A stretch of 64,000 bases of DNA from Escherichia coli (GTDB lineage Bacteria; Pseudomonadota; Gammaproteobacteria; Enterobacterales; Enterobacteriaceae). A model generated the notes under the pieces. That model saw nothing but the letters and a program-made list of their open reading frames with translations, searched no databases and was not told the origin of the DNA. Position numbers and translations under genes: made by a program. Below are positions 34,983 through 58,950 of this stretch, piece after piece. The stretch is from NCBI RefSeq assembly GCF_029227855.1, contig NZ_CP074356.1, one strand, 5' to 3'. Within the stretch, counting starts at the first letter, position 1. Every line of letters starts with the position of its first letter.

Positions 34983-36197
34983 ATGAAGATCGTAAAGGCT
35001 GAAGTTTTTGTTACCTGTCCGGGGCGTAATTTCGTCACATTAAAAATCACTACTGAGGACGGTATTACGGGCCTTGGGGATGCCACCCTCAATGGACGTG
35101 AGCTTTCCGTGGCCTCTTATTTGCAGGATCACCTTTGTCCGCAGCTTATTGGTCGCGATGCGCACCGTATCGAAGATATCTGGCAGTTTTTCTATAAAGG
35201 TGCTTACTGGCGTCGCGGCCCGGTGACGATGTCGGCCATTTCAGCGGTTGATATGGCGCTGTGGGATATTAAAGCCAAAGCTGCCAACATGCCGCTTTAC
35301 CAGTTACTCGGCGGCGCGTCTCGTGAAGGGGTGATGGTTTATTGCCATACCACCGGTCACAGTATTGATGAAGCTCTGGATGATTATGCCCGTCATCAGG
35401 AGCTGGGATTCAAAGCCATCCGCGTGCAGTGCGGAATCCCTGGTATGAAAACCACATACGGCATGTCGAAAGGTAAAGGTCTGGCTTATGAACCCGCAAC
35501 CAAAGGACAGTGGCCGGAAGAGCAGCTGTGGTCGACGGAGAAATACCTCGATTTCATGCCGAAATTGTTTGACGCGGTACGTAACAAGTTTGGTTTTAAT
35601 GAACATTTGCTGCATGACATGCACCATCGCTTAACGCCTATTGAAGCGGCGCGCTTTGGTAAAAGCATTGAAGATTATCGCATGTTCTGGATGGAAGACC
35701 CGACGCCTGCGGAAAACCAGGAATGCTTCCGTCTCATTCGCCAACATACCGTCACACCCATCGCGGTGGGTGAAGTCTTCAACAGCATCTGGGACTGCAA
35801 GCAACTGATTGAAGAGCAACTTATCGATTATATCCGCACTACGCTGACCCACGCGGGTGGCATTACCGGTATGCGCCGGATTGCCGATTTTGCTTCGCTG
35901 TATCAGGTACGTACTGGCTCACACGGTCCTTCCGATTTGTCACCAGTCTGCATGGCTGCGGCGCTGCACTTTGATCTGTGGGTCCCCAATTTCGGTGTCC
36001 AGGAATACATGGGTTATTCCGAACAAATGCTCGAAGTCTTCCCGCACAACTGGACTTTCGATAACGGCTATATGCATCCGGGAGACAAACCGGGTCTTGG
36101 CATCGAATTCGATGAAAAGCTGGCGGCGAAATATCCCTATGAATCTGCTTATCTACCAGTCGCACGTCTGGAAGATGGCACGCTGTGGAACTGGTAA
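34983..36197 (+). CDS. rspA: starvation-sensing protein RspA, enolase-superfamily dehydratase (404 aa)
   Basis: ORF 34950..36197; ATG at 34983 ([17 protein letters not shown]...) preceded by AAGGAA. Confidence 0.94.
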
Positions 36198-36208
36198 GGA
36201 GTAAGATA

Positions 36209-37228
36209 ATGAAAAGCATTTTAATTGAAAAACCGAATCAACTGGCAATTATCGAACGCGAAATACCTACCCCGTCAGCGGGTGAAGTACGAGTAAAAGT
36301 GAAACTTGCCGGAATTTGTGGTTCAGATAGCCATATTTATCGTGGGCATAATCCTTTTGCGAAATATCCGCGCGTCATTGGACATGAATTTTTTGGCGTC
36401 ATTGATGCAGTGGGTGAAGGCGTGGAAAGCGCCAGAGTCGGTGAACGCGTTGCTGTCGATCCGGTGGTCAGCTGTGGGCATTGCTATCCGTGCTCTATAG
36501 GTAAGCCGAACGTTTGTACAACACTGGCTGTATTAGGTGTGCACGCTGACGGTGGTTTCAGTGAATATGCCGTGGTTCCGGCAAAAAATGCGTGGAAAAT
36601 TCCTGAAGCAGTGGCCGATCAATATGCGGTGATGATCGAACCTTTTACCATTGCGGCGAACGTAACCGGTCATGGTCAACCGACTGAAAATGATACCGTT
36701 CTGGTTTACGGTGCCGGTCCAATCGGCCTGACGATCGTTCAGGTATTAAAAGGCGTCTATAACGTTAAAAATGTGATTGTTGCCGATCGCATTGATGAAC
36801 GACTGGAAAAAGCGAAAGAGAGCGGGGCTGACTGGGCGATTAATAACAGCCAGACACCGCTTGGCGAGATTTTCGCTGAAAAAGGCATAAAGCCGACATT
36901 AATTATCGATGCGGCTTGTCATCCTTCTATCCTGAAAGAGGCCGTAATTCTGGCTTCTCCAGCGGCACGTATTGTATTGATGGGCTTCTCCAGTGAACCG
37001 TCTGAAGTGATTCAGCAAGGAATTACCGGAAAAGAACTCTCTATTTTCTCTTCACGCTTAAATGCAAATAAATTCCCGGTCGTTATCGACTGGTTAAGTA
37101 AAGGGTTAATTAAACCAGAAAAATTAATTACCCATACGTTTGATTTCCAGCATGTTGCTGATGCCATTAGTTTATTTGAACAGGATCAAAAACATTGCTG
37201 CAAAGTCTTACTCACTTTTTCTGAATAA
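36209..37228 (+). CDS. rspB: starvation-sensing protein RspB, Zn-dependent alcohol dehydrogenase family (339 aa)
   Basis: ORF 36185..37228; ATG at 36209 after AAGGAG; motifs CGSDSH, GHEFFG, GAGPIG. Confidence 0.94.
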   Translation: MKSILIEKPNQLAIIEREIPTPSAGEVRVKVKLAGICGSDSHIYRGHNPFAKYPRVIGHEFFGVIDAVGEGVESARVGERVAVDPVVSCGHCYPCSIGKPNVCTTLAVLGVHADGGFSEYAVVPAKNAWKIPEAVADQYAVMIEPFTIAANVTGHGQPTENDTVLVYGAGPIGLTIVQVLKGVYNVKNVIVADRIDERLEKAKESGADWAINNSQTPLGEIFAEKGIKPTLIIDAACHPSILKEAVILASPAARIVLMGFSSEPSEVIQQGITGKELSIFSSRLNANKFPVVIDWLSKGLIKPEKLITHTFDFQHVADAISLFEQDQKHCCKVLLTFSE

Positions 37229-37285
37229 TACCAATAACGGCGAATAAGTAGTACGCATCTTACCTCTTTTTTAGAGATAACCATT

Positions 37286-37414
37286 ATGACAATAGAAAAA
37301 CACGAAAGAAGCACTAAGGATTTGGTGAAAGCAGCAGTATCGGGATGGCTGGGCACTGCGCTTGAATTTATGGATTTCAAGAGTCATACGTGTCAACTAT
37401 TTGATAAATATTAA
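37286..37414 (+). pseudogene. ydfJ: 5' fragment of an MFS-transporter gene (ydfJ-like) truncated at the prophage junction
   Basis: Hand translation MTIEKHERSTKDLVKAAVSGWLGTALEFMDF then KSHTCQLFDKY-stop; the first ~31 residues look like the conserved N-terminus of a metabolite:H+ symporter; the reading frame ends 2 bp before the integrase stop. Confidence 0.5.
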
Positions 37415-37415
37415 A

Positions 37416-38696
37416 TTAATTTTTCATTGCTTCGTTATGGGGCATGGTTGGGGCAAACTCGCTTAACTGTGTATTTAACAAAGCTACCTGTGCATTATTG
37501 TTTTCAGACATCCATTTTCCGTATACCTGAAATACCATTTGCGCATCTGCATGGCCCATCTGGTTTGCTATAAATGCCGGGTTAGCACCAGCTGTCAGCG
37601 ACCAGCAGGCATAAGTATGTCTCGACTGATATGATTTTCGATGGCGGAGTCCGGCACGTTTTATCGCTGCGTCCCACATCTGCCTTATTGAGTCAACGGT
37701 AAAATGGTCACCATAATTTTTTACTCTCGCTGACACTTCAGGTTGAAAAACAAAGGTGCATTTTTGTTTTTCTGTTCTGCCATACTCTCTGAGGTGAACA
37801 TCAATGATATGCTCTTTGCTCAGTCTCGTTAATGTCATCTGACTCCGGAGAGCGTCGATTGCTGGCTTAATAAGATGAATGACCCGATTGGTTCCCGCCT
37901 GTGTTTTTGGTACCGTGAAACGGTCTTTTGCTAAATTTCTCCTGATCATCATTGTTCCATTTTTCAGATCTATGTCCTCCCATCCAAGTGCACACAGCTC
38001 ACCAGGGCGAACGCCAGTATAAACAGAAACACACCATAAATTTTTTGCTTGCTGATTTCTGCACGCATCGATAAGACGGATAAATTCCTCCCGCGAAAGA
38101 GGATCCGGAATGGTTCTTGATTCCTTTAATGGCGAGATCCCCTTAAACGGATTATCTGGCAGGTAACCGTTATCAACACCAAACTGGAACACGGCGTTAA
38201 GATTTGTCATGTAATTATTTACAGTTACAGCCGATCTCCCTGGTTGTGTAACAATATAGTTACTTTTGGGGATCTGGTATCCAGTCAGTAGCTCTTTACG
38301 AACCTCCAGTAATTTTTCTTTATTAATCGATGAGGCAAGATTTTTTTCACCGATTATGCTCAGGATATTTTTGATGACGGCACGGTATGTGTTGAGTGAT
38401 GTTTTGGCGACTTCAGTTTCTTTCAGTGCCAGAAATTTTTCAGCCAGTTCTTTTATGGTTAAATCTTGTCGGGCCTCACCAAATTTTTCCAGATTGCGTG
38501 AGGAGGGAAACTGTTTTGCATAGTCGAAAACACCAGTTTTTATTGCGTAACAAACAGAGGCGCGTAGTTCACCTGCAACGCGCCTGTTTTTTGCTGTGTC
38601 AGGAACCCCCAGATTTTCCCTGACTCTTACGCCTTTATAAACAAACCAGATACGTAATTTCCCTCCATGGTTTTCCACGCCTGTCGGATATTTCAT
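37416..38696 (-). CDS. intQ: phage tyrosine integrase (about 426 aa)
   Basis: ORF 37416..38711 (-); preferred start at second ATG 38696 (MKYPTGVENHGGKLRIWF...) preceded by GAGAGG; catalytic region ...HRKSYQSRHTYACW...HADAQMVFQVYGKWM. Confidence 0.88.
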   Translation of the reverse strand: MKYPTGVENHGGKLRIWFVYKGVRVRENLGVPDTAKNRRVAGELRASVCYAIKTGVFDYAKQFPSSRNLEKFGEARQDLTIKELAEKFLALKETEVAKTSLNTYRAVIKNILSIIGEKNLASSINKEKLLEVRKELLTGYQIPKSNYIVTQPGRSAVTVNNYMTNLNAVFQFGVDNGYLPDNPFKGISPLKESRTIPDPLSREEFIRLIDACRNQQAKNLWCVSVYTGVRPGELCALGWEDIDLKNGTMMIRRNLAKDRFTVPKTQAGTNRVIHLIKPAIDALRSQMTLTRLSKEHIIDVHLREYGRTEKQKCTFVFQPEVSARVKNYGDHFTVDSIRQMWDAAIKRAGLRHRKSYQSRHTYACWSLTAGANPAFIANQMGHADAQMVFQVYGKWMSENNNAQVALLNTQLSEFAPTMPHNEAMKN

Positions 38697-38730
38697 TTCA
38701 ACCTCTCTCATTAGTTAGTGTGGCTTTTAG

Positions 38731-38982
38731 TCAAGTAAGATGACGTCTTGGTCTCGCTGATGCCTGGCGCTCAATCCAGCGATCAATTTCTTCCAGGTTG
38801 TAAAAGCATGGACTGTTATCCCATGGCATACCGTCATGAGCGACATGCTTATATTCCCTTCCTTCCATAAACGATTTTTCCCGGGCCTTTTTTAACGTAC
38901 CTTTTTTTATTCCTTTCAGCGCAATTAACTGCTCTTCGGATACCCATTTGCCGGGAGAGACAATCATGATTACTTCGCTCAT
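38731..38982 (-). CDS. putative excisionase (83 aa)
   Basis: Small ORF immediately upstream of int in the same orientation; assignment is by position. Confidence 0.55.
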   Translation of the reverse strand: MSEVIMIVSPGKWVSEEQLIALKGIKKGTLKKAREKSFMEGREYKHVAHDGMPWDNSPCFYNLEEIDRWIERQASARPRRHLT

Positions 38983-39054
38983 CGATTTCTTTATCTCTTA
39001 CATCAGACGAGCGCCGGTTGCAGAATACCAGTCACAACCGGCGACAGTTGAACA

Positions 39055-41526
39055 TTAAGAATCAGCCTGACTCGGGATCAGTTTTTGCCAGATAACTGAA
39101 ACGTATTTTGCCTGGTAACGGGCGTCATCAAGTGCATTATGCCGCTCACCTTCGAATGGAATAGCCGTTCTGGCATCGAAGTCTATGGCTTTCCCCAGCT
39201 CAACGATTGTGCGTACATCGCGATCGTTGTAGTAACGCCACGGGCAGGGGATCCCCTGCCGTTCGTATGAACGGCGCAAAATCGTGTTGTCGAAGTTGGC
39301 TCCATTTCCCCAGACCTGAACAAAAAATTCACCGGAGTTTTCGTCGATAAATTCCCGCAATTGTAACAGTGCATCATCTAACGGGATTTCATCGGTCATA
39401 ATGGCAGACTGCGCTTCACGTGATTGCTTCAGCCACCATTTAATGACGTCACGATCAATGACTCCGCCAGCAGTATTCAGATCTATGGTCTTGCTAAATT
39501 CCGGTCCCATATCTCCGGTTTGTGGATCGAAAAATATTGCGCCTATTGAGATAATCGGGGCATCAGGATTTTTTCCCATGGTTTCAAGGTCGATCATTAG
39601 ATGGTCACACGTCCTGCTGGTGGATGTGATAACGTGATGACCGTTCACCGTAATTAAGGGATCTGCCGTCTCGCCAGTTTCACTATCGCTGGCGTGGTCC
39701 TGAGCGCTGCCAGCATTCTCCTTGTGTGGATGTTCAGCGCCTTCCATTTTCTCCGAATCGTCTTCCTGAACTTCAACCTGGTTCTTGTCATCGAATGTTT
39801 CCTGGTATGTTGCGTCGCCCATCACCGCACCACATTCAGGGCAGTTGCCGCCGCCGGTCTGACCGTAGGCGGTGCAGATTTTTTCCGCTTCCTGTTGCGC
39901 TACTGGCTCAGGTTGTTTCGTTTCTGGCTCGTTTTGTAACGCATTTGGGCTGTTTTGTTCCGCTTTCTGGTCGTTCTGTTCCGTTTCTTGCTGGTTCTGG
40001 TTCACTGAATCGCGGGTTTCAATCCCCTTCACCCATTTCGGATCATTCGGATCGCTAATCCCTGCAACAAATTCACCACGTGATACAGCAAGCAACTGAT
40101 TGGCGTCAGGCTGGCTGATATTGGCTGCCTGCATAATTTTGTTTACTTCGTCAGCGGTAATTTTTACCGGCTCTGGTTGTGCGGTCGTGTCAGATGCACC
40201 AGTATTTTGTTGTGAACCTGAGTATGTACCGTTTTTGCGGGCGAAATATTCTTCTTTCGTGATTTCAGTAGCCCCGGCAGCCAGCGCCTTATCCAGACCA
40301 GAAAGTTTGTTTGCGCGACCGTATTTTTCGCCATCCTTGTCGGTAAAGAGGAAGTAGAACGGCCCCTCACGCTCTACAGATGGTTCGACTTCCACTTTGC
40401 ATTCAGTTTTTTCGTTGCCCGGAATTGCCGTTTCCACTGCATCAGTTTCTGGTACTGGCGACGAGAGAGTATCAGTTGCGCTCTGATTTGTTCCTTCATC
40501 TTCAAACACGCCCTTTGTAGTCAGGTATTTAGTAATGTATTTGTTCAGTGCCACAGGGTCTTTGTGAATGTCGATCGGACGTTCACGGACAAGGCCAAAA
40601 ATAGTCTGGCGGTCGTAGCGAAGGGCATCAGGCTGTTTGCGCATTGATGCCGAGATACGCTTCCAGTCTTCGCGGTCGTTGTCGATAACTTCATTTTTTG
40701 CCCAGCGATGGATGCTGCCGTCAATGTTTCCGGCATCCACATCACCAGGCCAGAGAGCGTAGGCCAGTTCGTCATCCAGTGTTTTCCATGTCTGCTTGTA
40801 TTCGCGATGAGTGGCAGCAATGACCGGGTTGATTTTTCCTGTTGAATTTTCAGTGTGCTGTTGATTGGCTCTGGCGCGGGCGAGATCAACAACAGACGTG
40901 TATTTTCCGGTTTCCTTGCGTTCATTTTCGCGACGTTTTTTCCAGATGCGCATCTCTGCCTGAATTTCGGGCCATTTAGCTCCAGGATTACATTTATGTT
41001 TAACCCACCCGATGGCATGCAGCTTAAGCTCCGGATACATGGCGTTAACTTCTGGCATTTTCATCAACGCTTCAACGATATGTCCGTCGAATGTTGCCAT
41101 GTCTTCCTGCAACAATTCCTGCGCGCTAATCACCATATCAACGGTGATGTTTTCACATGTGTCGAACTTAACCATGACAGCGTTCTGTACTTCAGGGGCC
41201 AGCTTGTCAAAAGTGACGTTCATCGGATCTGATTCAGTCTCAACCGGGACAAAGGAAGCAGACTCCTCATCCCAGCGGTTTTCCTGCATATATTCAGCAT
41301 CCCAGGAATCGAGGGCAGGGCGGGGTATACCGGGTTTATCCTCGCAAACAAGAAATTTATAAGCGCAGTCCTGAGCAACCGGATAATGTTCCAGGAATTG
41401 CCAGTGAAATTTTGCGCGGGCGCGACGTTCATCACCGGCTTCAATGGCAGTGGCTACAGCGATTGCACCTTCTTCCTTTATTGCCTGTTCGTCCGGAATG
41501 GCGGCGCAAATAAAGACTTTACTCAT
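39055..41526 (-). CDS. prophage exonuclease (RecE/ExoVIII-like position) with C-terminal DEDDh-type 3'-5' exonuclease domain (823 aa)
   Basis: ORF track 823 aa; C-terminal motifs MIDLETMG and ERHNALDDARYQ fit Exo I and Exo III of DnaQ-like exonucleases; acidic Q/E-rich central region. Confidence 0.78.
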   Translation of the reverse strand: MSKVFICAAIPDEQAIKEEGAIAVATAIEAGDERRARAKFHWQFLEHYPVAQDCAYKFLVCEDKPGIPRPALDSWDAEYMQENRWDEESASFVPVETESDPMNVTFDKLAPEVQNAVMVKFDTCENITVDMVISAQELLQEDMATFDGHIVEALMKMPEVNAMYPELKLHAIGWVKHKCNPGAKWPEIQAEMRIWKKRRENERKETGKYTSVVDLARARANQQHTENSTGKINPVIAATHREYKQTWKTLDDELAYALWPGDVDAGNIDGSIHRWAKNEVIDNDREDWKRISASMRKQPDALRYDRQTIFGLVRERPIDIHKDPVALNKYITKYLTTKGVFEDEGTNQSATDTLSSPVPETDAVETAIPGNEKTECKVEVEPSVEREGPFYFLFTDKDGEKYGRANKLSGLDKALAAGATEITKEEYFARKNGTYSGSQQNTGASDTTAQPEPVKITADEVNKIMQAANISQPDANQLLAVSRGEFVAGISDPNDPKWVKGIETRDSVNQNQQETEQNDQKAEQNSPNALQNEPETKQPEPVAQQEAEKICTAYGQTGGGNCPECGAVMGDATYQETFDDKNQVEVQEDDSEKMEGAEHPHKENAGSAQDHASDSETGETADPLITVNGHHVITSTSRTCDHLMIDLETMGKNPDAPIISIGAIFFDPQTGDMGPEFSKTIDLNTAGGVIDRDVIKWWLKQSREAQSAIMTDEIPLDDALLQLREFIDENSGEFFVQVWGNGANFDNTILRRSYERQGIPCPWRYYNDRDVRTIVELGKAIDFDARTAIPFEGERHNALDDARYQAKYVSVIWQKLIPSQADS

Positions 41527-41619
41527 TTTGTTTTAACCTCATGACAGATTTAAGGGTGAACAAATCCCTGCCATTGCTGGCATATAAGAATGAAATCGGA
41601 TGTTTATTACGGAACTGTT

Positions 41620-41811
41620 TTAAAGACCTGCCGGGATTTCGTTATTATCCTGGTGAATAACTTTATCGACAGGGTAACAGTTACCGGGAATTTTCTGTTC
41701 GGTTGCTGCAGTCACACACTCCTGCATTGTCCTGTGAACACTGACTGCAATATCAACTGGTTCTCCGGAAACAAGAAAAACTGTCAGAACAAGTGCAAAT
41801 GCTGTATTCAT
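41620..41811 (-). CDS. ydfD: small membrane-targeted protein YdfD (63 aa)
   Basis: ORF 41620..41865 (-); start at ATG 41809-41811 (MNTAFALVLTVFLVSGEPVD...); overlaps the dicB stop (ATGA). Confidence 0.8.
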   Translation of the reverse strand: MNTAFALVLTVFLVSGEPVDIAVSVHRTMQECVTAATEQKIPGNCYPVDKVIHQDNNEIPAGL

Positions 41812-41996
41812 TGCCAGCATCCTTTTTGTATCGGACGTAAACGGGCCAGCATTGAAAGAATGCATACTTTATTTAATAGCTCCCGTTCTTGTTTTCTCTT
41901 GTTAATGGCATCTTCAGTAAATACTGGGTTACTGATAGTGACACCAATTTCAAAACAACCTTCAGACGTATTAACGTTTGGTAATAACGTTTTCAT
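41808..41996 (-). CDS. dicB: cell-division inhibitor DicB (62 aa)
   Basis: ORF 41808..42101 (-); start at ATG 41994-41996 preceded by GAGGA; MKTLLPNVNTSEGCFEIGVTISNPVFTEDAINKRKQERELLNKVCILSMLARL... recognised as DicB. Confidence 0.88.
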   Translation of the reverse strand: MKTLLPNVNTSEGCFEIGVTISNPVFTEDAINKRKQERELLNKVCILSMLARLRPIQKGCWQ

Positions 41997-42165
41997 TATC
42001 GCGTCCTCAACAATGAATTTTGTGATGCAGTGCCTGGTGCCTCCAGGTGACGTTAACCAGTTAACAATTAACGTCGGATACAGAGAATCCACCCATAACA
42101 CTGTTTTTGGTTTTAACTGTTCCGCGTGCGCTCAGCCGCATTCACCGCATCACAAAATTCACTTT

Positions 42166-42223
42166 AAAAACGGCGGCAGAGCAGTCACGGAGTAAAACTG
42201 ATACCGCTAAACGTCACCAGAAA
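42166..42223 (-). ncRNA. dicF: DicF small RNA
   Basis: Reverse complement reads TTTCTGGTGACGTTTAGCGGTATCAGTTTTACTCCGTGACTGCTCTGCCGCCGTTTTT, matching the DicF sequence I recall, including terminator stem and U-tail; lies between the ydfC-like ORF and dicB. Confidence 0.85.
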
Positions 42224-42254
42224 ATTGATAACAGAGGGCGTTGCAGCGGGGTTG

Positions 42255-42446
42255 TCACTTAAGCGTATGGTCAACCTGACAACCCGGTGTCCTCAACGGG
42301 GAAGGAATAACCCCGCCATACTTACCGCCGCGCCATTTCGCGGGTTGCCACAACCGGAAGCGCACGGTCGAATTAAATTTAACGACACCGTACAGTGAGA
42401 CGAACTTCGCCGTGCGCTTTCGTGTTGTGTGCCTGCTTTTAACCAC
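42255..42446 (-). CDS. possible ydfC-like small ORF (63 aa, GTG start)
   Basis: Only positional support (between the ydfB-like ORF and dicF); composition not convincing; a second GTG ORF 42293..42478 competes. Confidence 0.25.
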   Translation of the reverse strand: MVKSRHTTRKRTAKFVSLYGVVKFNSTVRFRLWQPAKWRGGKYGGVIPSPLRTPGCQVDHTLK

Positions 42447-42482
42447 GTCAGGCGAGGTGGTATCCTTAAAATCACCACAGTT

Positions 42483-43058
42483 TTAAGGATTCATTAAGCA
42501 ATGTCGCAACCACCAATAAATCCGCTTAAGAACATGAAAATTGATTACTGGTATAAAGCGCTTACAGTTGTTGGCGCTGCGTTGTTTGTCTTTAATGGAA
42601 CGTCTTTTTTTGACAGATATCCCGTTGTTCCATTGGGTTTTTTGTCCTCCGGCATCTTTTTTATTGGTTTGGGGGAGTGGATTAATCACCCTCTCAAAGT
42701 GAGATTTATTGGTCCTGGAGTTTGGACTCGTGGATATAATCGTTCTTCGTGCGCACTCGGTATCATCTTCGACATACTTGGTTGTTTCCTGATTGTTACA
42801 GGAGTCGTCAAGTTCTTCTGATGTAAAACCGCAAATGGGGCACGTAACGGGAATTTTGAAAAGCGTTTCTCCGGGTTCCAGAACAAAATTTTCTGCGGTC
42901 TGATTTTGCTTCTCATATTTGTGCTCCGCGTCATTGTGAGAGCACATTCTTATTCTGAGTGCCTGTTTAAACTCACTGAAGCTGAGAGCTTCTTCGCCTT
43001 CGGCAAGACCTTCGAAGTATTCTTCGTAAGCCTTTTCCATGATTGTGTCGAAATCCAT
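42483..43058 (-). CDS. ydfB-like ORF, extended (191 aa from MDFDTIMEK...)
   Basis: ATG at 43056-43058, 1 nt after the ydfA stop; N-terminal ~90 aa protein-like (acidic helix, CPICGF); C-terminal half K/R/N-rich and is the codon-for-codon complement of a membrane-protein-like ORF on the plus strand. Confidence 0.4.
   Translation of the reverse strand: MDFDTIMEKAYEEYFEGLAEGEEALSFSEFKQALRIRMCSHNDAEHKYEKQNQTAENFVLEPGETLFKIPVTCPICGFTSEELDDSCNNQETTKYVEDDTECARRTIISTSPNSRTNKSHFERVINPLPQTNKKDAGGQKTQWNNGISVKKRRSIKDKQRSANNCKRFIPVINFHVLKRIYWWLRHCLMNP
42501..42821 (+). CDS. possible antisense 3-TM membrane protein (106 aa)
   Basis: ORF track 106 aa; three hydrophobic segments (ALTVVGAALFVF, VVPLGFLSSGIFFIGLG, CALGIIFDILGCFLIVTGVV); T-rich second codon positions; AAGGA 11 nt upstream of the ATG. 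Shares triplet register with the minus-strand ORF, so only one of the two is likely real. Confidence 0.35.
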   Translation: MSQPPINPLKNMKIDYWYKALTVVGAALFVFNGTSFFDRYPVVPLGFLSSGIFFIGLGEWINHPLKVRFIGPGVWTRGYNRSSCALGIIFDILGCFLIVTGVVKFF

Positions 43059-43059
43059 A

Positions 43060-43215
43060 TCACTCACCTGAGTTTCTTTCCAGCCAGCGACGGGCACCAT
43101 TTTCGGTTTTAAACGTTTTGCTTTTGGTATATGTCATCGCGGTGAACGTACCGTCCTGGTTGGGGAACACGCCACATACCAGAGATTCGCTGTTGCCAAG
43201 ATCGATAGTATCCAT
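43060..43215 (-). CDS. ydfA: DUF1391 small protein YdfA (51 aa)
   Basis: ORF 43060..43269 (-); start at ATG 43213-43215 with GAGG SD; MDTIDLGNSESLVCGVFPNQDGTFTAMTYTKSKTFKTENGARRWLERNSGE. Confidence 0.85.
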   Translation of the reverse strand: MDTIDLGNSESLVCGVFPNQDGTFTAMTYTKSKTFKTENGARRWLERNSGE

Positions 43216-43329
43216 GCTGACCTCATTTCCCCTTAACGCCGGGGTCGCGGAACTGTTTGCTGAGAACACCGTGCGGTGTCTTGATGGAAAGTAATTTAGA
43301 ATAACCTAACACGAGAGGCAAGTGTTTTT

Positions 43330-43347
43330 TGTTAGATTGATCTAACA
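43330..43347. promoter_or_regulatory. perfect palindrome TGTTAGA-N4-TCTAACA, candidate DicA operator at the dicB-operon promoter
   Basis: tgttagattgatctaaca between dicA 3' end and ydfA; same half-sites as the palindrome in the dicA-dicC intergenic region. Confidence 0.5.
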
Positions 43348-43383
43348 AAAAGAGTGGGCGCAACTAATCACTTGAAAAGAATG

Positions 43384-43791
43384 TTATTTTATTGATTTAT
43401 TTTTACGCGCTTTAAGCATTTCTTCGAAGAGTTTGTTGAAGTTTTCTACTCTTGCGCGCATTTCAGACAGCAAGGCTTCCTGCTCGGAAGATGGAAGAGC
43501 ATCGAATAATTCGATCAATTCTTTGTGGTTGGGAGTTAGCTCTGTTTCCACATGAAGTTCTTGTGCAGGCACTGGTGCCTTGTCTTCGTCACCAAACATT
43601 AGCCATGTAGGTGAGCACTTCAGAGCATCCGCTAAAGCAAACAATCGTTTTCCGACTGGCTGGGTTTCGTCTCTTTCCCATTGTGAAATTGTGACGTGAG
43701 CAACTCCAGCGAGGCGCGCAGCTTCTCGTTGTGTTAAGCGTAATTCTTTTCGTCGCGCCAGAACTCGCTGGCCTAGGGTTCTTGTATCCAT
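43384..43791 (-). CDS. dicA: HTH (XRE/CI-like) repressor DicA (135 aa)
   Basis: ORF track 135 aa MDTRTLGQRVLARRKELRLTQREAARLAGVAHVTISQWERDETQP... Confidence 0.9.
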   Translation of the reverse strand: MDTRTLGQRVLARRKELRLTQREAARLAGVAHVTISQWERDETQPVGKRLFALADALKCSPTWLMFGDEDKAPVPAQELHVETELTPNHKELIELFDALPSSEQEALLSEMRARVENFNKLFEEMLKARKNKSIK

Positions 43792-43840
43792 AGTTAGGTA
43801 ATTCTAATTTTTCTTGACTTAGGTATCCCGCGCACAATAA

Positions 43841-43858
43841 TGTTAGAAAAGTCTAACA
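43841..43858. promoter_or_regulatory. perfect palindrome TGTTAGA-N4-TCTAACA in the dicA/dicC divergent promoter region (candidate operator)
   Basis: tgttagaaaagtctaaca, 13 bp upstream of the dicC start. Confidence 0.55.
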
Positions 43859-43871
43859 AGAGGGGGCTTTG

Positions 43872-44099
43872 ATGCTTAAAGTTGACGCAATTACTTTTTT
43901 TGGCAGCAAAACAAAGCTTGCCAATGCCGCAGGAGTGAGACTGGCAAGTGTTGCTGCTTGGGGGATACTGGTTCCTGAAGGTCGCGCGATGCGTCTACAG
44001 GAGGCATCTGGCGGGGAGCTTCAGTATGATCCCAAAGTTTATGACGAATATCGTAAGACGAAGCGGGCGGGGCGGTTGAACAATGAAAATCACTCCTGA
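43872..44099 (+). CDS. dicC: Cro-like regulator DicC (75-76 aa)
   Basis: ORF 43869..44099; ATG at 43872 preceded by AGGGGG; MLKVDAITFFGSKTKLANAAGVRLASVAAWGIL... Confidence 0.88.
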   Translation: MLKVDAITFFGSKTKLANAAGVRLASVAAWGILVPEGRAMRLQEASGGELQYDPKVYDEYRKTKRAGRLNNENHS

Positions 44100-44604
44100 A
44101 CAGGCTCGTGAGGCTCTGGATGCCTGGATATGTCGACCAGGAATGACACAGGAGCAGGCGACGATATTAATCACTGAAGCATTCTGGGCTTTGAAAGAGC
44201 GCCCGAACATCGATGTTCAGCGTGTCACATATGAAGGTGGCGCGGTTGATCAGCGAGCGCTTAGCGTTAATCGAGTGAAGATATTCGAACGCTGGAAGGC
44301 TATCGACACCAGGGATAAGCGTGAAAAGTTCACAGCGCTAGTGCCTGCAATTATGGAGGCTATCCGGATTAGTGATTTCAGGTTGTATCGTGAGATCAGT
44401 GATGGAAAAAGTATTACGTACATGATCGCCGGGTTAAATAAAGAATATGGCGATGTGGTGGAATCCGGACTGCTTTTTGCAGATCCTGCCGTTGTAGATC
44501 GTGAAACTGACGAACTTATAGAAAAAGCAATTGCTTTCAAGCTTGCGTATCGACAGCAATACCAACAAAAAGCTGGATGGAATTATGAGTCTTCTTTTTG
44601 CTGA
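44083..44604 (+). CDS. prophage early protein (YdfX/YdaT-like position), 173 aa
   Basis: ORF track 173 aa overlapping the dicC stop; position equals cII in lambdoid maps; family name is a guess. Confidence 0.55.
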   Translation: MKITPEQAREALDAWICRPGMTQEQATILITEAFWALKERPNIDVQRVTYEGGAVDQRALSVNRVKIFERWKAIDTRDKREKFTALVPAIMEAIRISDFRLYREISDGKSITYMIAGLNKEYGDVVESGLLFADPAVVDRETDELIEKAIAFKLAYRQQYQQKAGWNYESSFC

Positions 44605-45550
44605 ACGCCCACTGGTTATAAACACGCAGCTGGCAATGAAAATCGGCTTAAACGAAGCCATTGTTTTGCAACAACTGCACTACTGGTTGAGAGATACCAA
44701 CTCCGGTATGGAATGTGATGGTGTTCGCTGGATTTATAACACAACGGAACAATGGCTGGAACAGTTCCCATTCTGGTCAGAGTCAACGTTAAAGCGCGCG
44801 TTTGCAAGTCTGAAAACGCTGGGGCTTTTGCGTTGTGAAAAGCTCAATAAATCAAAGCGCGATATGACCAATTTCTACACGATCAACTATGGGAGCGAGC
44901 TTTTAGATGGTGGCAAATTGAACGAATCCATCGGTTCAAAATGCGCCGCTCCATCAGGTCAAAATGACACGATGGAAGAGGTCAAAATGAAACGCTCCAT
45001 TGGTTCAAAACGATCCAATGTCATCGGGTCAAAATGGCCTGATGATCTTACAGAGAATACAACAGAGATTACTACAGAGAATAAAAACACTTTTCGTCCG
45101 GAAGCTTCGCAACCGGACCCGCAGACGACTGAACAGGATTTTTTAACCCGGAACTCCGACGCGGTTGTGTTTAGTGCGAAAAAACGCCAGTGGGGTAGCA
45201 GGGAGGATTTGGCGTGTGCGCAGTGGATCTGGGGGCGGATCGTGGGTCTCTACGAACAGGCAGCCAGTGATGATGGCGAGATCATGCGACCAAAAGAGCC
45301 TAACTGGACTGCCTGGGCCAATGACGTGCGCACAATGCGGATGCTGGATGGCAGAAGCCACAGACAAATTTGCGAAATGTTTGGTCGGGTTCAGCGAGAT
45401 CCATTCTGGGTAAAAAACATCATGAGCCCGTCAAAGCTCCGCGAAAAATGGGACGAACTGGTCATCCGCCTGGGACGTTCACCTGTACAGCGTTGTGTTA
45501 ATCATATTTCTGAACCGGATACAGAAATTCCGCCTGGTTTCAGAGGATAA
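44585..45550 (+). CDS. phage replication initiation / replisome organiser protein (O-like), about 321 aa
   Basis: ORF 44531..45550; start chosen at ATG 44585 (MSLLFAERPLVINTQLAMKIGLNEAIVLQQLHYWL...), an N-terminal winged-helix pattern I associate with phage replisome organisers; alternative start 44636. Confidence 0.7.
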   Translation: MSLLFAERPLVINTQLAMKIGLNEAIVLQQLHYWLRDTNSGMECDGVRWIYNTTEQWLEQFPFWSESTLKRAFASLKTLGLLRCEKLNKSKRDMTNFYTINYGSELLDGGKLNESIGSKCAAPSGQNDTMEEVKMKRSIGSKRSNVIGSKWPDDLTENTTEITTENKNTFRPEASQPDPQTTEQDFLTRNSDAVVFSAKKRQWGSREDLACAQWIWGRIVGLYEQAASDDGEIMRPKEPNWTAWANDVRTMRMLDGRSHRQICEMFGRVQRDPFWVKNIMSPSKLREKWDELVIRLGRSPVQRCVNHISEPDTEIPPGFRG

Positions 45551-45590
45551 GTGTTGATTTCAGGTCATGAGGTAATTTTAAGGGGGACTT

Positions 45591-46022
45591 GTGGCAAAAG
45601 TTTTTACACAAGAAGAGCGGGAAAAAATTAAAGGGCAGGTGGTGGAACTCGTGCGCCAGAGCGGTCGTGAGACGTTACGGCAACTGGAAGCTAAAACAGG
45701 TGCGACTAGATATCTGATGAGCGTTCTTGCCAGAGAGCTGGTAGCCAGTGGCGATGTATACAACTCCGGCTACGGGTTATTCCCGTCTGAACAGGCGCGT
45801 AAGGACTGGCAACACGCCCGCAAAAAACTCTCGAGGGCAAAGGTGAAGAAACCTGCTGTGGTTGATCCGGACCTTATCTGGTCATTACCTGACGGAGAAA
45901 TACGCCGCTACGACAGTCGCCTAAACATAATCTGTCGCGAGTGCCGGAAGACTGAAGTTATGCAGCGTATACTCGCATTCTATCAGGGAAATGTTCGATA
46001 TCTATTGAAGCGACGAGATTAA
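45591..46022 (+). CDS. hypothetical prophage protein (143 aa, GTG start)
   Basis: GTG at 45591 preceded by AGGGGG; basic protein; function unknown. Confidence 0.5.
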   Translation: MAKVFTQEEREKIKGQVVELVRQSGRETLRQLEAKTGATRYLMSVLARELVASGDVYNSGYGLFPSEQARKDWQHARKKLSRAKVKKPAVVDPDLIWSLPDGEIRRYDSRLNIICRECRKTEVMQRILAFYQGNVRYLLKRRD

Positions 46023-46345
46023 AGAGCATTAGTTCAGATGTGAATTGACATTTTCGTGGCACAAGATTAGCGCTAGCGTGGTCGTTTGGTTTGTGCCAAG
46101 AGCGGATAATGCTGACATTCCTATGCACTAATTAACGCAGAGCAAGCCAGTTAGTTGGTTATGGAAGTAAGTTGTAGCCAGCAACTATCACCATCGGAGA
46201 TATTTAGGGGGATGCACTCTAAGTTGTAGTTACTTTATAATGTCACTTTCAAAGCGGAAGCTTGTACAAAAGATGGATAAGCTTTTGTATAGTATGGGAT
46301 TCAAGAATCACTAAAAGATGACAACAGTACTTACAGGATGTGGCT

Positions 46346-46585
46346 ATGATCCGAATTATGATTAGAATATTTTCTTTGACATTCGTTGCTTGCGCTGGCT
46401 TTGCTGCATATCACTTCAATAGTGTGCCATTGATGTTCACTTCTGGTAGCTTTCTTGTAACATTTTTAGGTACATTTATTGTTAATAAAAAAAGTTCAGG
46501 GCATACAATAATTCAAAAAAGCGGTAGCCATTCAAAAAATAATCATACGGTCGTTTTTGGAAATAATGAAAACAAGCGAGGCTGA
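46346..46585 (+). CDS. small two-TM membrane peptide (79 aa), first gene of the AT-rich cassette
   Basis: ATG at 46346 with AGGA upstream; MIRIMIRIFSLTFVACAGFAAYHF...LMFTSGSFLVTFLGTFIV then polar tail; stop is 2 nt before the next start. Confidence 0.5.
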   Translation: MIRIMIRIFSLTFVACAGFAAYHFNSVPLMFTSGSFLVTFLGTFIVNKKSSGHTIIQKSGSHSKNNHTVVFGNNENKRG

Positions 46586-46587
46586 TC

Positions 46588-47184
46588 ATGGTTGGTGTTA
46601 CTCAAAGGTCAGGGAATTACTCACGTAATGTGCAGGTGGTTGTCGATTCTAACTCTGTTGATATTATAAAGTCTCCATCGATTTTTATGGATCTTGTTGG
46701 TATTTTAGTTGATTCGAATGTTATTGATCCTCGTACAAACAATGACTACGAGCCATATGATATTGAGAATAAAATAGACTTCAATGATGTTATAAAACAT
46801 AGAGAACGTATTGAAGGGTTCTATCTATATTCTTCGATGATAGATAAAGCGTATGAAACATTAAATGAAAGTATGCCTACTGCTAAGGAAACGGCACTGA
46901 AAAGCATCAATTCACGATATCTTGATTGTCAAGGAGATTTATTGCTTAAACATAGAGAAGCGTATAAGAGCTGCAAGGATGCTCAGGAACGGAATAATTT
47001 AAAGATTCAATTGGTAAGAGAGTTTGCAGATTGGATAATAGACAGTGTAATAGAGCACATCATTAAGAAATGCTTAAATTCTCTTATGGCAATGAATTAC
47101 ACAAGCGAAGAAATCGAATGCCATGCTTCTTTTATCGTTTATCATGCATTCGTAGAGTGTAAGATTCTGGAAAAACCAATATGA
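46588..47184 (+). CDS. hypothetical protein (198 aa), second gene of the AT-rich cassette
   Basis: ATG 46588 with GAGG SD; stop overlaps the next start (ATGA); no motif I recognise. Confidence 0.65.
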   Translation: MVGVTQRSGNYSRNVQVVVDSNSVDIIKSPSIFMDLVGILVDSNVIDPRTNNDYEPYDIENKIDFNDVIKHRERIEGFYLYSSMIDKAYETLNESMPTAKETALKSINSRYLDCQGDLLLKHREAYKSCKDAQERNNLKIQLVREFADWIIDSVIEHIIKKCLNSLMAMNYTSEEIECHASFIVYHAFVECKILEKPI

Positions 47185-47417
47185 TTATCTCTGATGTAAC
47201 AAAACCAAGCCAAACCTTGTATTACCTGGGAGCTCGGTTATTAGAATGCATGAGTTCAAATGCTTATTCGTATGTTGATATTATAGACTTGTATAATGAA
47301 TTCAAATCTAAAAATAACAACTCTTCATTCACGCAATATATTTACACTTTAAATTGGCTATATTTATTAGGCCTGGTTGATGCTAACGAAAATGGAGATT
47401 TGATATTATGTTTTTGA
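47181..47417 (+). CDS. hypothetical small protein (78 aa), third gene of the AT-rich cassette
   Basis: ATG 47181 overlapping the upstream stop; 3' end overlaps the ATPase start by 10 nt. Confidence 0.6.
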   Translation: MIISDVTKPSQTLYYLGARLLECMSSNAYSYVDIIDLYNEFKSKNNNSSFTQYIYTLNWLYLLGLVDANENGDLILCF

Positions 47418-49132
47418 AACGGCTAATAGTCAGTTCTTTCAGGCTTGGAGTGATTCGTGATATCGAATTTCACATTGGCGTTAATTTGATTATTGACCGA
47501 AACACCTCCAGCAAAGAGCAAACTGGAAATGGTGTGGGAAAAACTACTGTATTAAGAGCTTTAGATTTTTGTTTTGGAGCAGAACAACTGAATTTTTATA
47601 CCGATCCTGAATTCAAGAAAGAAAATTCGGTTATAAAAAATTATTTGATAGAGAACGAGATTGAGTTTTGTTTAATTCTCACAAAAGATTTGAATAATAA
47701 AACTGCACCAGTAATAAAAATTAAGCGTAAAATTACATCTGAGACTAATAAAACGAAGGTTATAGCCTCAATAAATGAAGAGTCCTATACGAAGGCTAAA
47801 GATTTCAACGAGGCTTTAAAAAGAACATTATATCTTGATTCCGCGATAAAACCGACCATACGAGAGATTATGGGACGTGTTATTCGAAATACGCATGACA
47901 AGATGTCGAACGCATTAAAAACGATAAAAATGGGTTCTAATACACAATATGAAACGTTAAATCTGTTTATGTTTGGGTTCGGTAACTCACAGATTCTGGA
48001 TGAAAAACAGTCAGTGACTAAAGCCTATAAACTGGCGAAATCCGATTATGAAGTAATTACTCGCCATCGCTCAAAGAATGCTTTGGAACAAGCTATTGCA
48101 ATTATAAATAGAGATATTATAGCACAAGAAGAGTTAATTTCTAATTTTCAAGTGGCAGACTCTTATAATGATATGCTTGCTGAGTTAAATGAGTTAAAAA
48201 TTAAAATTAGTGAAGTTTCTATCACACTATCATCTTTGGAGTTTAAGCAAAAATTAAACGATAAGGCTATACTAGATCTGGAAAAAAGTCATGAAAATAT
48301 AAATACACTAGATCTACAGAAGTTGTACTTAGAAGCAACTGATCGGTTAGGTAACTTAAACAAAGAGTTTACTGAGCTACTTTCGTTTCATAATAAAATG
48401 CTTGTAAAAAAAGCTGAGTTTATTAGAAAACAAATGCAGCCAGTGCTGCAAGAAATTTCCAAATATAAAGATGAACTAAATAATTTATTGACTCAAGAAT
48501 CAGAGCTTTTAAAGAGTTTGTCTTCGCATGGGACATTGGCAGACCTGCAAATAATGCAAAAAAAATTAAATTCATTATTTGAAGAAAAAGGTGGGCTTGA
48601 AGCTGGACTACTTCAAATCCAAGAGATGGAGAACAACTTTAATATACTGAAAGCAAAGTTTAATGATGTGTCAGATAGATTAAAATCTAAACTTGACGAT
48701 TTTAACAAACGTCTTGCGCTATTCAATTCCTATTTTTCTTTATATACTAAAAAATTATATCAGGATGAATATATTCTTTCCTATAAAGATTCCTCCGGTT
48801 CTTTCGTTTTTACCATTGAACCTTTAGGAACTTTGCTCACATCAGGTAATCAGGGAGAAGGAAAAAAGAAAGCCCAGGTTGCCTCTTTAGATTTTGCCTA
48901 TTTATCTGTCCAGGAGTCTTTAGAAGCCAGAACACCACGTTTTATAGCTCATGATGGAATTGAGGCAATTCATGTAAATCAAATAAATAAGTTATTCGAG
49001 ATAGCTTCGGGGATTAATGGTCAATATATATTGGCTATTCTTAAAGACAAGTTGGAGAATATTGATCAAGACTTCATCAATAATAGTGTTGTGCTTGAGC
49101 TTGGGGAGGACGATAAGTTTTTTAGGCTTTAA
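47408..49132 (+). CDS. SMC/Rad50/ABC-type coiled-coil ATPase (574 aa), fourth gene of the AT-rich cassette
   Basis: N-terminal P-loop TGNGVGKTTVLRALDFCFG (RecF/SMC-type Walker A); ~300-aa heptad-rich central region; C-terminal TSGNQGEG (signature-like) followed by RFIAHDGIEAIH (Walker-B/D-loop-like); GGAG SD. Confidence 0.8.
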   Translation: MFLKRLIVSSFRLGVIRDIEFHIGVNLIIDRNTSSKEQTGNGVGKTTVLRALDFCFGAEQLNFYTDPEFKKENSVIKNYLIENEIEFCLILTKDLNNKTAPVIKIKRKITSETNKTKVIASINEESYTKAKDFNEALKRTLYLDSAIKPTIREIMGRVIRNTHDKMSNALKTIKMGSNTQYETLNLFMFGFGNSQILDEKQSVTKAYKLAKSDYEVITRHRSKNALEQAIAIINRDIIAQEELISNFQVADSYNDMLAELNELKIKISEVSITLSSLEFKQKLNDKAILDLEKSHENINTLDLQKLYLEATDRLGNLNKEFTELLSFHNKMLVKKAEFIRKQMQPVLQEISKYKDELNNLLTQESELLKSLSSHGTLADLQIMQKKLNSLFEEKGGLEAGLLQIQEMENNFNILKAKFNDVSDRLKSKLDDFNKRLALFNSYFSLYTKKLYQDEYILSYKDSSGSFVFTIEPLGTLLTSGNQGEGKKKAQVASLDFAYLSVQESLEARTPRFIAHDGIEAIHVNQINKLFEIASGINGQYILAILKDKLENIDQDFINNSVVLELGEDDKFFRL

Positions 49133-49279
49133 GATTTGTAATTTGATAGATATGTAGATATCATTTTTCTCGCTCAAAACTGACAGTCAGATTTGAGCGA
49201 ATTGCTTATGTAAGTATTTCGCAGAATCATGCCATTTATATTTATTAGAACATACGTACTTTAAATGTGGGAGGCTGTC

Positions 49280-49366
49280 ATGTTGGTTCTTAAATGTTCG
49301 CTGACTATTGCGGTGGTGCGGGTAATTTATTGTTCTGTTATTCTTATGGATCGCCTTTCTGACTGA
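49280..49366 (+). CDS. possible 28-aa hydrophobic peptide
   Basis: ATG 49280 preceded by GGGAGG at spacing 6; MLVLKCSLTIAVVRVIYCSVILMDRLSD; could be coincidental. Confidence 0.25.
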   Translation: MLVLKCSLTIAVVRVIYCSVILMDRLSD

Positions 49367-49577
49367 TTTCATATTGGCGAGATAACGGGAGTTAAGTAGA
49401 ATGCCTGCGGGTGCTTGAGGCTATCTGCCTCGGGCATGAACACCAACGGCAGATAGAGAAAAGCCCCAGTTAACATTACGCGTCCTGCAAGACGCTTAAC
49501 ATTAATCTGAGGCCAATTTCATGCTAGACACATGTAGGTTAGCCTCTTACGTGCCGAAAGGCAAGGAGAAGCAGGCT

Positions 49578-49733
49578 ATGAAGCAGCAAAAGGCGATGTT
49601 AATCGCCCTGATCGTCATCTGTTTAACCGTCATAGTGACGGCACTGGTAACGAGGAAAGACCTCTGCGAGGTACGAATCCGAACCGGCCAGACGGAGGTC
49701 GCTGTCTTCACAGCTTACGAACCTGAGGAGTAA
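49578..49733 (+). CDS. hokD: Hok/Gef-family membrane toxin HokD (51 aa)
   Basis: ATG 49578 preceded by AAGGAGAAG; MKQQKAMLIALIVICLTVIVTALVTRKDLCEVRIRTGQTEVAVFTAYEPEE; ORF track shows an in-frame upstream extension from 49521. Confidence 0.86.
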   Translation: MKQQKAMLIALIVICLTVIVTALVTRKDLCEVRIRTGQTEVAVFTAYEPEE

Positions 49734-49740
49734 GAGACCC

Positions 49741-49830
49741 GGCGAGGGAGAAATCCCTCGCCACCTCTGATGTGACAGGCATCCTCAACGCACCCGCACT
49801 TAACCCGCTTCGGCGTGTTTTTGTTTTTAT
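49741..49830 (+). terminator. stem-loops and T-run downstream of hokD (putative 3' fold-back/terminator region)
   Basis: Hairpin ggcgaggga-gaaa-tccctcgcc at 49741-49762, then cgcttcggcg followed by tgtttttgtttttatttt. Confidence 0.4.
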
Positions 49831-49949
49831 TTTCAACGCGTTTGAAGTTCTGGACGGTGCCGGAATAGAATCAAAAATACTTAAGTAGCGCGCAGGGATA
49901 AGAGGGATGTTCCCTTAAAGGGGAGAGCTAATTATCCGGAAGGATTCTG

Positions 49950-50201
49950 ATGATGAACATCGAAGAACTGCGTAAAATTTTTTGTGAAGATGGCCTCTAT
50001 GCTGTGTGCGTTGAAAATGGAAATCTTGTTAGTCATTACCGCATTATGTGTTTGCGAAAGAATGGGGCTGCGTTAATTAATTTTGTGGATGGTCGAGTGA
50101 CAGACGGATTTATCTTGCGCGAAGGTGAGTTTGTCACTTCATTACAGGCACTGAAAGAGATCGGAATAAAAGCAGGCTTTTCAGCTTTTGCAGAAGAATA
50201 A
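49950..50201 (+). CDS. rem: Rem protein (83 aa), function unknown
   Basis: ORF track 83 aa MMNIEELRKIFCEDGLYAVCVENGNLVSHYRIMCLRK...; conserved Qin gene next to hokD. Confidence 0.8.
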   Translation: MMNIEELRKIFCEDGLYAVCVENGNLVSHYRIMCLRKNGAALINFVDGRVTDGFILREGEFVTSLQALKEIGIKAGFSAFAEE

Positions 50202-50267
50202 ACTCATCTACAATCTTGCGCGGGGCTGAACTCCCGCTGAGTAACACCGTGCCACCGGAGAAAACCG

Positions 50268-50546
50268 ATGGCACGCAACGTAAAATATTACAATTCTGAT
50301 AATTCGCCCGTTCTTGCCTGCACGCACGAGCGGTATTCTCACGCATTCAAGTCTGAATGGTTCCAGCACCCTCCATGCACTGAAGAGCAGGCTGAATGGA
50401 TAATTCAGTGTTACCGCAGGCGCGGATACGAGGTTAAGAAAGCCCTTAGTCTCGACTACCGTCACTGGATAATCTCAGTCAGATTGCCTTACTCCGAACG
50501 CCCACCGCGTCCGTCCCGTACATTCCAGCAACGCATCTGGAGGTAA
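50268..50546 (+). CDS. hypothetical prophage protein (92 aa)
   Basis: ATG 50268 with GGAG upstream; stop 1 nt before the ydfU start. Confidence 0.5.
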   Translation: MARNVKYYNSDNSPVLACTHERYSHAFKSEWFQHPPCTEEQAEWIIQCYRRRGYEVKKALSLDYRHWIISVRLPYSERPPRPSRTFQQRIWR

Positions 50547-50547
50547 C

Positions 50548-51597: not shown

Positions 51598-51614
51598 TTT
51601 TGTGGAGTAAGTTG

Positions 51615-51992
51615 ATGCGTGATATTCAGATGGTTCTTGAGCGTTGGGGGGCATGGGCGGCTAATAATCATGAAGATGTGACCTGGTCGTCCATTGCCGC
51701 TGGTTTTAAGGGATTAATTCCTTCAAAAGTAAGATCTCGTCCGCAATGCTGTGACGATGACGCGATGATCATTTGTGAATGTATGGCTCGCCTGAGAAAA
51801 AACAACAGCGATTTACATGGTTTATTGGTGGACTATTATGTCGGCGGCATGACTTTTATGGCGCTTGCACGTAAGCATGGGCGATCTGATTGTTGGGTTG
51901 GCAGGATGCTCCAGAAAGCTGAGGGCGTAGTGGAGGGCATGCTGATGGTATTGGATCTCCGATTGGAGATGGATGCTGATTGTTCGAAATAA
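51615..51992 (+). CDS. late-gene antiterminator Q (QuuD-type), about 126 aa
   Basis: ORF 51600..51992 (TTG); ATG at 51615 after GGAG; [34 protein letters not shown]... recognised as the short Q family of DLP12 QuuD. Confidence 0.85.
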
Positions 51993-51999
51993 TTAAAGG

Positions 52000-52060
52000 A
52001 AAAGTTGCTGTCTGATTGTCATTAGTCTAACATTTTAAATGTTGGAATCGCAACGTAGTT
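52000..52060 (+). promoter_or_regulatory. putative late promoter / qut region (pR'-like), not precisely mapped
   Basis: AT-rich segment with TTGTCA and TAAATG/TATCAT candidate hexamers between the Q stop and a strong terminator. Confidence 0.3.
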
Positions 52061-52081
52061 ATTATCATATAACAGCTTGTT

Positions 52082-52109: not shown

Positions 52110-52147
52110 TGGTTTTTTTCTAATAAGTATCATTTCGGGTAGGGATT

Positions 52148-55351: not shown

Positions 55352-55355
55352 TCCA

Positions 55356-58942: not shown

Positions 58943-58950
58943 GAGGAATA

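Follow-up and report, generated by a model that had tools for sequence, protein, structure and literature searches.

The dicF gene and its 3′ end

The window analysed here, a stretch of 64,000 nucleotides, carries a prophage early-left operon on its minus strand, in which ydfA, the start of ydfB, dicF, dicB and ydfD follow one another, and a 106-aa protein gene that converges on the operon from the plus strand at the place of ydfC. The 53-nt dicF gene occupies 42171..42223 (−). When the whole window was searched with cmscan at gathering thresholds, two Rfam hits were obtained in all 64 kb, only one of which was DicF (RF00039), at 42222..42171 (−), covering model positions 1–52 of 52 and scoring 64.8 bits (gathering threshold 48; E = 6.1e-12). 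Alignment with dicF of the cryptic K-12 Qin prophage (b1574; NC_000913.3 1649382..1649434) gave 51 identical nucleotides out of 53, the differences being G16A and C53G.

A preliminary description, made from the letters alone, had called a DicF RNA over 42166-42223 and named the Rfam covariance model as the check on it. The RNA passes this model, and the span corresponds to the 53-nt RNA (42223..42171) plus a tract of five U residues, on the minus strand, which the description had left unstated. A chance resemblance or an RNA of another family is virtually impossible; the model is short (52 positions), which is all that speaks for it, whereas the E value of 6e-12, the 51/53 identity and the synteny with dicB, ydfD, ydfA and dicA/dicC at the Qin site rule it out. 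The identity of the RNA is thus established in silico, and 42223..42171 (−) is very probably dicF in the full sense, an Hfq-dependent antisense RNA of 53 nt known from Qin-type lambdoid prophages, with a K-12-like mechanism. DicF is already known, and its sequence as found here occurs unchanged in 25 RefSeq genomes.

The Rfam structure line and folding both place a stem-loop at nt 16–52 of DicF, followed by nt 53 and UUUUU, as a Rho-independent terminator and Hfq-type 3′ end (42166..42208, −). The 3′ end of DicF arises by early Rho-independent termination (PMC9438474). Ten of the 11 model base pairs are standard, the outermost one, 16-52, is an A·C mismatch, and the UUUUU (42170..42166) comes after two unpaired nucleotides 3′ of the stem. 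The resemblance to DicF described as nearly base for base holds at 51 of 53 positions, but one of the two substitutions sits in the terminator stem; likewise, the intrinsic terminator is present as a stem-loop followed by UUUUU, but its outermost G16–C52 pair has become A·C. A simple terminator scan of 41500-44200, whose rule demands an uninterrupted stem and a loop of 3–8 nt, did not flag the DicF terminator, whose stem is bulged and whose loop has 11 nt; this was not counted against the terminator.

dicB, the operon genes and the prophage

Downstream of dicF, the 62-aa cell-division inhibitor DicB is encoded at 41808..41996 (−). It was recognised by PF05358 (128.4 bits, cutoff 27) and NF049927 (131.6 bits, cutoff 100) and is 90% identical to K-12 DicB (56/62), with four of the six differences falling in the last eight residues. 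The dicB ATG lies 174 nt past the DicF 3′ end, a spacing as in K-12, and GAGGA stands 7 nt before it. The order and the good Shine-Dalgarno sequence given in the preliminary description were therefore found, although "immediately downstream" is a loose term for a 174-nt gap. ydfD (DUF1482, lysis protein family; 41620..41811, −) overlaps the dicB stop codon, matches PF07358 with 88 bits and is 94% identical to K-12 YdfD. The first gene of the operon, ydfA (DUF1391; 43060..43215, −), matches PF07151 with 96 bits and is 96% identical to K-12 YdfA.

The operon had further been described as ydfABC-dicF-dicB, and this could not be upheld: ydfA is intact, only the first 34 codons of ydfB remain and ydfC is absent. 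In tblastn searches of the window with K-12 proteins, residues 1–34 of the 42 of YdfB were matched, and YdfC had no match at E ≤ 1e-3. In agreement, the PGAP annotation of a genome 100% identical over the 2.4-kb region has ydfB as an incomplete pseudogene, no ydfC and nothing between ydfB and dicB. The Qin-type six-element order ydfA-ydfB-ydfC-dicF-dicB-ydfD is thus not found, and ydfA, dicF, dicB and ydfD are present. Since dicF and dicB are both there and look intact by sequence, the claim of a complete division-inhibition module is supported at the sequence level.

Left of ydfD, the minus strand carries an intact exonuclease gene of 823 aa (41526..39055; tblastn and Pfam), whose K-12 counterpart ydfE is a truncated pseudogene, then an excisionase gene (38982..38731; ORF and annotation) and an intact integrase gene (38711..37416) whose product is 97% identical to that of the intQ pseudogene. 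From 37393 leftwards follow ynfP and then rspB, the Qin attachment site (tblastn and annotation). Window positions 35500..64000 are 99.7–99.9% collinear with the prophage of E. coli WP2-W18-ESBL-08, which extends between rspB and ydfJ and includes genes for lysis, head and tail alongside Q, hokD and rem. The DNA is therefore prophage, as had been proposed, and a Qin-family element that looks complete, unlike the K-12 relic. It shares with K-12 Qin the stem-loop with U5, the leader, the 174-nt spacer, the attachment site at ynfP/rspB, DicA/DicC-type immunity and rem. K-12 Qin is defective, with intQ and ydfE pseudogenes and an IS2 insertion, whereas the integrase and exonuclease genes of the window prophage are intact; conversely, the window has no ydfC, and its ydfB is truncated and fused to another ORF.

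Two further features of this prophage were observed. A Sok antisense RNA (RF01794, 115 bits) at 49409-49583 (+) overlaps the hokD toxin gene at 49578-49733, and this pair is the known Qin type I toxin-antitoxin. At 46588-49132 (+) lie three consecutive genes, whose products have 198, 78 and 574 aa, the last being a DUF2326 protein. The collinear genome has them annotated as "ABC-three component system", and they look like a candidate anti-phage or abortive-infection cassette. The trio sits between the replication genes and hokD, where K-12 Qin has relBE.

Immunity region and control

Upstream of ydfA, a 135-aa CI-type repressor (HTH_3; 43384..43791, −) is 57% identical to K-12 DicA over 132 aa, and divergent from it a Cro protein (P22_Cro, PF14549; 43869..44099, +) is 86% identical to K-12 DicC, identifying the regulators as DicA-like and DicC-like. 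The dicA-ydfA intergenic region (43216..43383, −) aligns with that of K-12 and is the counterpart of dicBp. In K-12, three operators and the promoter dicBp are placed in the immunity region (PMC10448788). Half-sites of the form TGTTAG...CTAACA are kept in both the dicA-ydfA (43216-43383) and the dicC-dicA (43792-43868) intergenic regions, with spacers that differ from those of K-12, and the ydfA 5′ UTR is nearly identical to that of K-12. The promoter hexamers can be assigned provisionally within 43216..43383, and operators are predicted on both sides of dicA, as expected of DicA/DicC-type control. Rem is the antirepressor of DicA in K-12 (PMC10448788); the rem gene of the window (49950..50201, +), an ORF that corresponds to "protein Rem" in the collinear genome, is by analogy the likely inducer of the operon, and repression would be exerted by the DicA-like protein and lifted by Rem. 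That a repressor just 57% identical to DicA faces the same half-sites as in K-12 raises the question of immunity cross-reaction.

The leader and the processing hairpin

In K-12, a transcript beginning upstream of ydfA is processed by RNase III to a 190-nt RNA and by RNase E to the 53-nt DicF (PMC10448788). The 150 nt upstream of dicF are 100% identical to K-12, and the 174 nt down to dicB about 98%. Identical to K-12 is thus the leader (42224..42346, −), which lies between the DicF 5′ end and the hairpin described below and would form the body of the 190-nt precursor. Farther upstream, a long imperfect hairpin at 42347..42432 (−), a predicted RNase III substrate, is seen in the minimum free energy (MFE) and centroid structures of the window as well as of K-12, and its 5′ arm differs from K-12 by two U-to-C changes that turn G·U into G-C and preserve pairing; the hairpin is conserved in four contexts. 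Judging from these folds, the hairpin at 42432..42347 would be the RNase III substrate from which the 190-nt DicF precursor derives, since a 190-nt RNA ending at the terminator would start at about 42360, in the 3′ arm of the hairpin. The RNase E cut is expected in the AU-rich stretch at the DicF 5′ end, and this AU-rich junction is identical in K-12.

The locus shares its logic with operon-internal and 3′UTR-derived sRNAs such as SroC (PMC9438474), i.e., a polycistronic transcript, an internal Rho-independent terminator and an endonucleolytic 5′ end. It differs from them in that the ORF upstream of the window dicF is a ydfB fusion that is itself antisense to another gene.

The G16A + C53G allele

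The allele with both substitutions is rare. Among 5,426 complete E. coli genomes, an exact 71-nt match was obtained in 25 records, compared with 3,044 for the K-12 allele, and the combination occurred in one of the 43 IMG/VR loci carrying dicF. By itself, C53G is frequent in prophages of this type, being present at loci L003-L005 and at 21 of the 43 IMG/VR loci with dicF found; position 53, which lies outside the stem, is C, G, T or A among natural alleles. The Rfam score falls from 76.7 bits for the K-12 allele to 72.5 for the allele with C53G only and to 64.8 for the window allele, which is 12 bits below the K-12 sequence.

Folding showed that G16A loses the closing G16–C52 pair and raises the hairpin energy from −15.1 (K-12) to −12.8 kcal/mol. 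With A16 and G53, an extra helix, GACG(9–12):CGUU(52–55), appeared in both the MFE and centroid structures, and the predicted unpaired probability of nt 9–12 dropped from 0.85 to 0.22. The A16 mismatch, together with the two unpaired bases before the five-residue U tract, could according to these models lower termination and the formation of an Hfq-competent 3′ end. The window allele might then be a weakened variant, in which G16A destabilises the terminator and, together with C53G, sequesters part of the 5′ seed, giving less 53-nt DicF, more read-through into dicB and ydfD and weaker regulation of targets that pair with this seed, xylR among them. The loss of hairpin energy, the reduced accessibility of nt 9–12, the alternative helix, the drop in bit score and the rarity of the allele all point in this direction, and so rare an allele would fit a change that is slightly deleterious or recent. 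We nevertheless consider a weakened DicF unlikely. The energy differences are small, at 1–2 kcal/mol; six G-C/A-U pairs and the inner helix are retained; position 53 is free to vary in nature; the predicted xylR duplex is improved by G16A; and Hfq may remodel the 5′ region. Furthermore, the allele is unchanged in 25 genomes, so it is no isolated sequencing error. As a natural allele, G16A offers a ready test of how terminator strength splits the output between DicF and DicB.

Complementarity to the targets

PMC5069750 assigns pairing with ftsZ and pykA to the 3′ part of DicF and pairing with xylR to its 5′ part. Nucleotides 17–52 of the window DicF are identical to K-12, and the pairing cores for ftsZ, pykA and manX, which RNAduplex located at DicF nt 23–52 against the K-12 target regions, are unchanged, with energies similar to those of K-12; this program over-extends looped duplexes and ignores intramolecular structure, and was used only to locate the pairing-core nucleotides. 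The duplex predicted likewise with the K-12 xylR region uses nt 5–17, in which G16A turns a G·U into an A-U pair. Complementarity is therefore maintained toward the K-12 target regions, which stood in for the host's own target genes as these lie outside the window.

A convergent gene in place of ydfC

Homology to K-12 ends at 42957 and resumes about 210 nt upstream of dicF, at the 5′ foot of the processing hairpin, and a segment of about 520 bp, unrelated to K-12, stands in place of the end of ydfB and of ydfC. Convergent with the operon, this cassette holds the gene of the 106-aa protein (42501..42821, +), in which hydropathy analysis showed three hydrophobic segments. Sixty homologues of about the same length were found, including proteins of Yersinia (51% identity), Herminiimonas (43%) and Reinekea (41%), and the motifs DYWYKA and GLGEW.NHP are invariant in the family. 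Substitutions between lineages pile up at the third codon positions of the gene, e.g., 11/7/35 for positions 1/2/3. Because of the homologues, the invariant motifs and the third-position substitutions, we regard the gene as real. Searches of the Pfam, PHROG and NCBIfam models gave no match to the protein.

In every prophage context examined, the gene lies left of a cI-type repressor and antisense to the early-left operon, a position that we take to be of the kind held by the lysogen-expressed morons of the sieB type in the early-left region of lambda, P22 and Rac. The likeness to those morons consists in a small multi-pass membrane protein, encoded left of a cI-type repressor and antisense to the early-left operon; the differences are that the 106-aa protein has no similarity to any named family and that its gene is wholly overlapped by an open antisense frame. 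The family, of about 100–110 aa and unnamed, was seen at window positions 42501-42821 (+) and at the comparison loci L013 and L020-L024. On Reinekea-type contigs, the family gene adjoins a conserved 132-aa ORF, and one contig (L018) has it near a reverse transcriptase.

An open frame antisense to the convergent gene

The operon strand carries an ORF of 191 codons (42483..43058, −), whose first 34 codons are the start of ydfB (tblastn) and continue in frame into an unrelated ORF that contains the motif IPxxCPICGF. The frame crosses the 106-aa gene from end to end, antisense to it and in codon register with it, and closes at 42483, which leaves 50 nt to the RNase III hairpin. Searches of Pfam, PHROGs and NCBIfam matched phrog_35040, to which no function is assigned there, over the full length of the 191-aa ORF, and besides only the ydfB-type N-terminus. 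The motif IPxxCP[IV]CGF, just outside the overlap, is conserved with synonymous third-position changes across lineages, and the part of the ORF that carries it looks coding by this pattern.

Within the overlap, amino-acid identity is 61% in the minus frame versus 84% in the plus frame. For the overlap, a reading in which the minus ORF (205 or 191 aa) is the true gene and the plus ORF only its reflection was rejected on account of this difference, of the 11/7/35 distribution of substitutions and of homologues of the plus protein that have the same length and occur in unrelated bacteria without an open frame on the other strand.

As the minus frame is stop-free across the overlap, the 106-aa gene has no TTA, CTA or TCA codons, although codons of these types make up 25% of Leu and 27% of Ser codons in the neighbouring prophage genes. 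Among 12 representative lineages (at most 67% identical, taken whether the frame was open or closed, and not fully independent), the antisense frame is open in seven, whereas 0.48 would be expected if the frequency of A-ending codons at the four-fold sites of each gene is taken as the basis (Poisson-binomial P ~8e-10). Closed frames, with three to nine stops, were found in L076, L080, L086 and the chromosomal homologues, and single stops in L021, L060 and L069. A literature search on ydfB combined with antisense overlap found nothing.

A tentative interpretation is that the cassette holds a true antisense, codon-aligned overlapping gene pair, in which the stop-free frame is kept for its translation or for a second protein. 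In the first case, ribosomes crossing the convergent moron may let the early-left transcript reach dicF and dicB without Rho-dependent polarity, and in other phages transcription may reach kilR or recET in the same way. The alternative is a second real protein with the IPxxCPxCGF motif and a disordered tail. On statistical grounds, the stop-free frame is a strong candidate either for a gene overlap or for an anti-polarity that depends on translation, and would be of wider interest if confirmed.

Proposed expression of the module

In transcription, processing, Hfq dependence and phenotype, the module would, by analogy with the work on K-12, behave as follows. In the lysogen, the DicA-like repressor would shut the leftward early promoter upstream of ydfA. 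Once repression is lifted, by Rem or by a spontaneous switch, a polycistronic RNA would be made that comprises ydfA, the ydfB-fusion ORF, dicF, dicB, ydfD and perhaps the exonuclease gene. RNase III would cut this RNA at the hairpin (42432..42347) to give a precursor of about 190 nt, which RNase E would trim to the 5′ end of the 53-nt RNA; the 3′ end would be made by termination at the stem-loop and U5, and dicB would be carried by the read-through transcripts. DicF would then repress ftsZ, pykA and manX by pairing with their mRNAs through nt ~23–52, and xylR by pairing through nt ~5–17, and DicB would separately block division together with MinC.

Before it reaches dicF, the transcript has to pass through about 750 nt of antisense to the convergent gene, and transcriptional interference or polarity absent in K-12 could result. 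In the extreme case, the cassette would block early-left transcription before dicF and dicB, and the module would be a decaying relic that is never expressed. The disrupted ydfB, the lost ydfC and the convergent gene, whose promoter is to be expected upstream of it, between the operon promoter and dicF fit such a decay, and a dicF that is probably degraded does exist elsewhere, e.g., in L007, where 15 nt of the 5′ seed are missing and the score is 51.3 bits. We consider it quite improbable here, however, since dicF, the processing region, dicB and ydfD carry no disabling change, the integrase and exonuclease genes are intact, unlike in K-12 Qin, the junction between cassette and dicF is retained in several prophage types, and the operon-strand frame stays open across the cassette, which fits continued translation of a through-transcript. 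An expressible module of the K-12 kind remains the preferred interpretation.

DicF as a moving block

The 2.4-kb arrangement, at 80% or more of the region, is present in 278 of the 5,426 complete E. coli genomes. That the genes around dicF vary was already described in PMC5069750, where dicF is seen in other prophage contexts, such as the multi-copy dicF of O157:H7 and the partial dicBF loci of Fig. 9. The window is one more such context, and the order ydfA, truncated ydfB, convergent 106-aa gene, dicF and dicB is not among the arrangements named in the text consulted. As one more prophage copy of a well-studied sRNA, it has little consequence for DicF itself.

In the Rac-like prophages of L020 and L021, the 106-aa gene is followed by a dicF block (L020 3257-3721, −; L021 3242-3716, −) that begins at the hairpin and ends about 165 nt beyond the terminator, and then by isrK, a C4-type antisense RNA, an antirepressor gene (Phage_pRha/ASH) and kilR. 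These last four stand in place of dicB. The division inhibitor that accompanies DicF in these prophages is therefore another one, kilR instead of dicB, and, as the block recurs, DicF moves between different cargo within a unit of about 480 bp. The unit, which is made up of the RNase III hairpin and the leader, DicF with its terminator, and the spacer that follows, appears to be conserved and to recombine as a block, with ydfC or the membrane-protein cassette upstream and either dicB or isrK/C4/antirepressor/kilR downstream. In L026 and L038, IMG/VR sequences with a 100% identical 106-aa gene, no dicF was found within six mismatches in 2.5 kb of flank, which suggests occasional loss or replacement of the DicF block.

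A shortened dicF was observed in L007 (E. coli JNEC-KY176) at 1490-1541. It lacks about 15 nt of the 5′ seed, and its 51.3 bits are just over the Rfam threshold; it is probably degraded, or else specialised to targets of the 3′ seed. In the same locus, a 447-bp gene on the opposite strand lies between ydfC and dicF.
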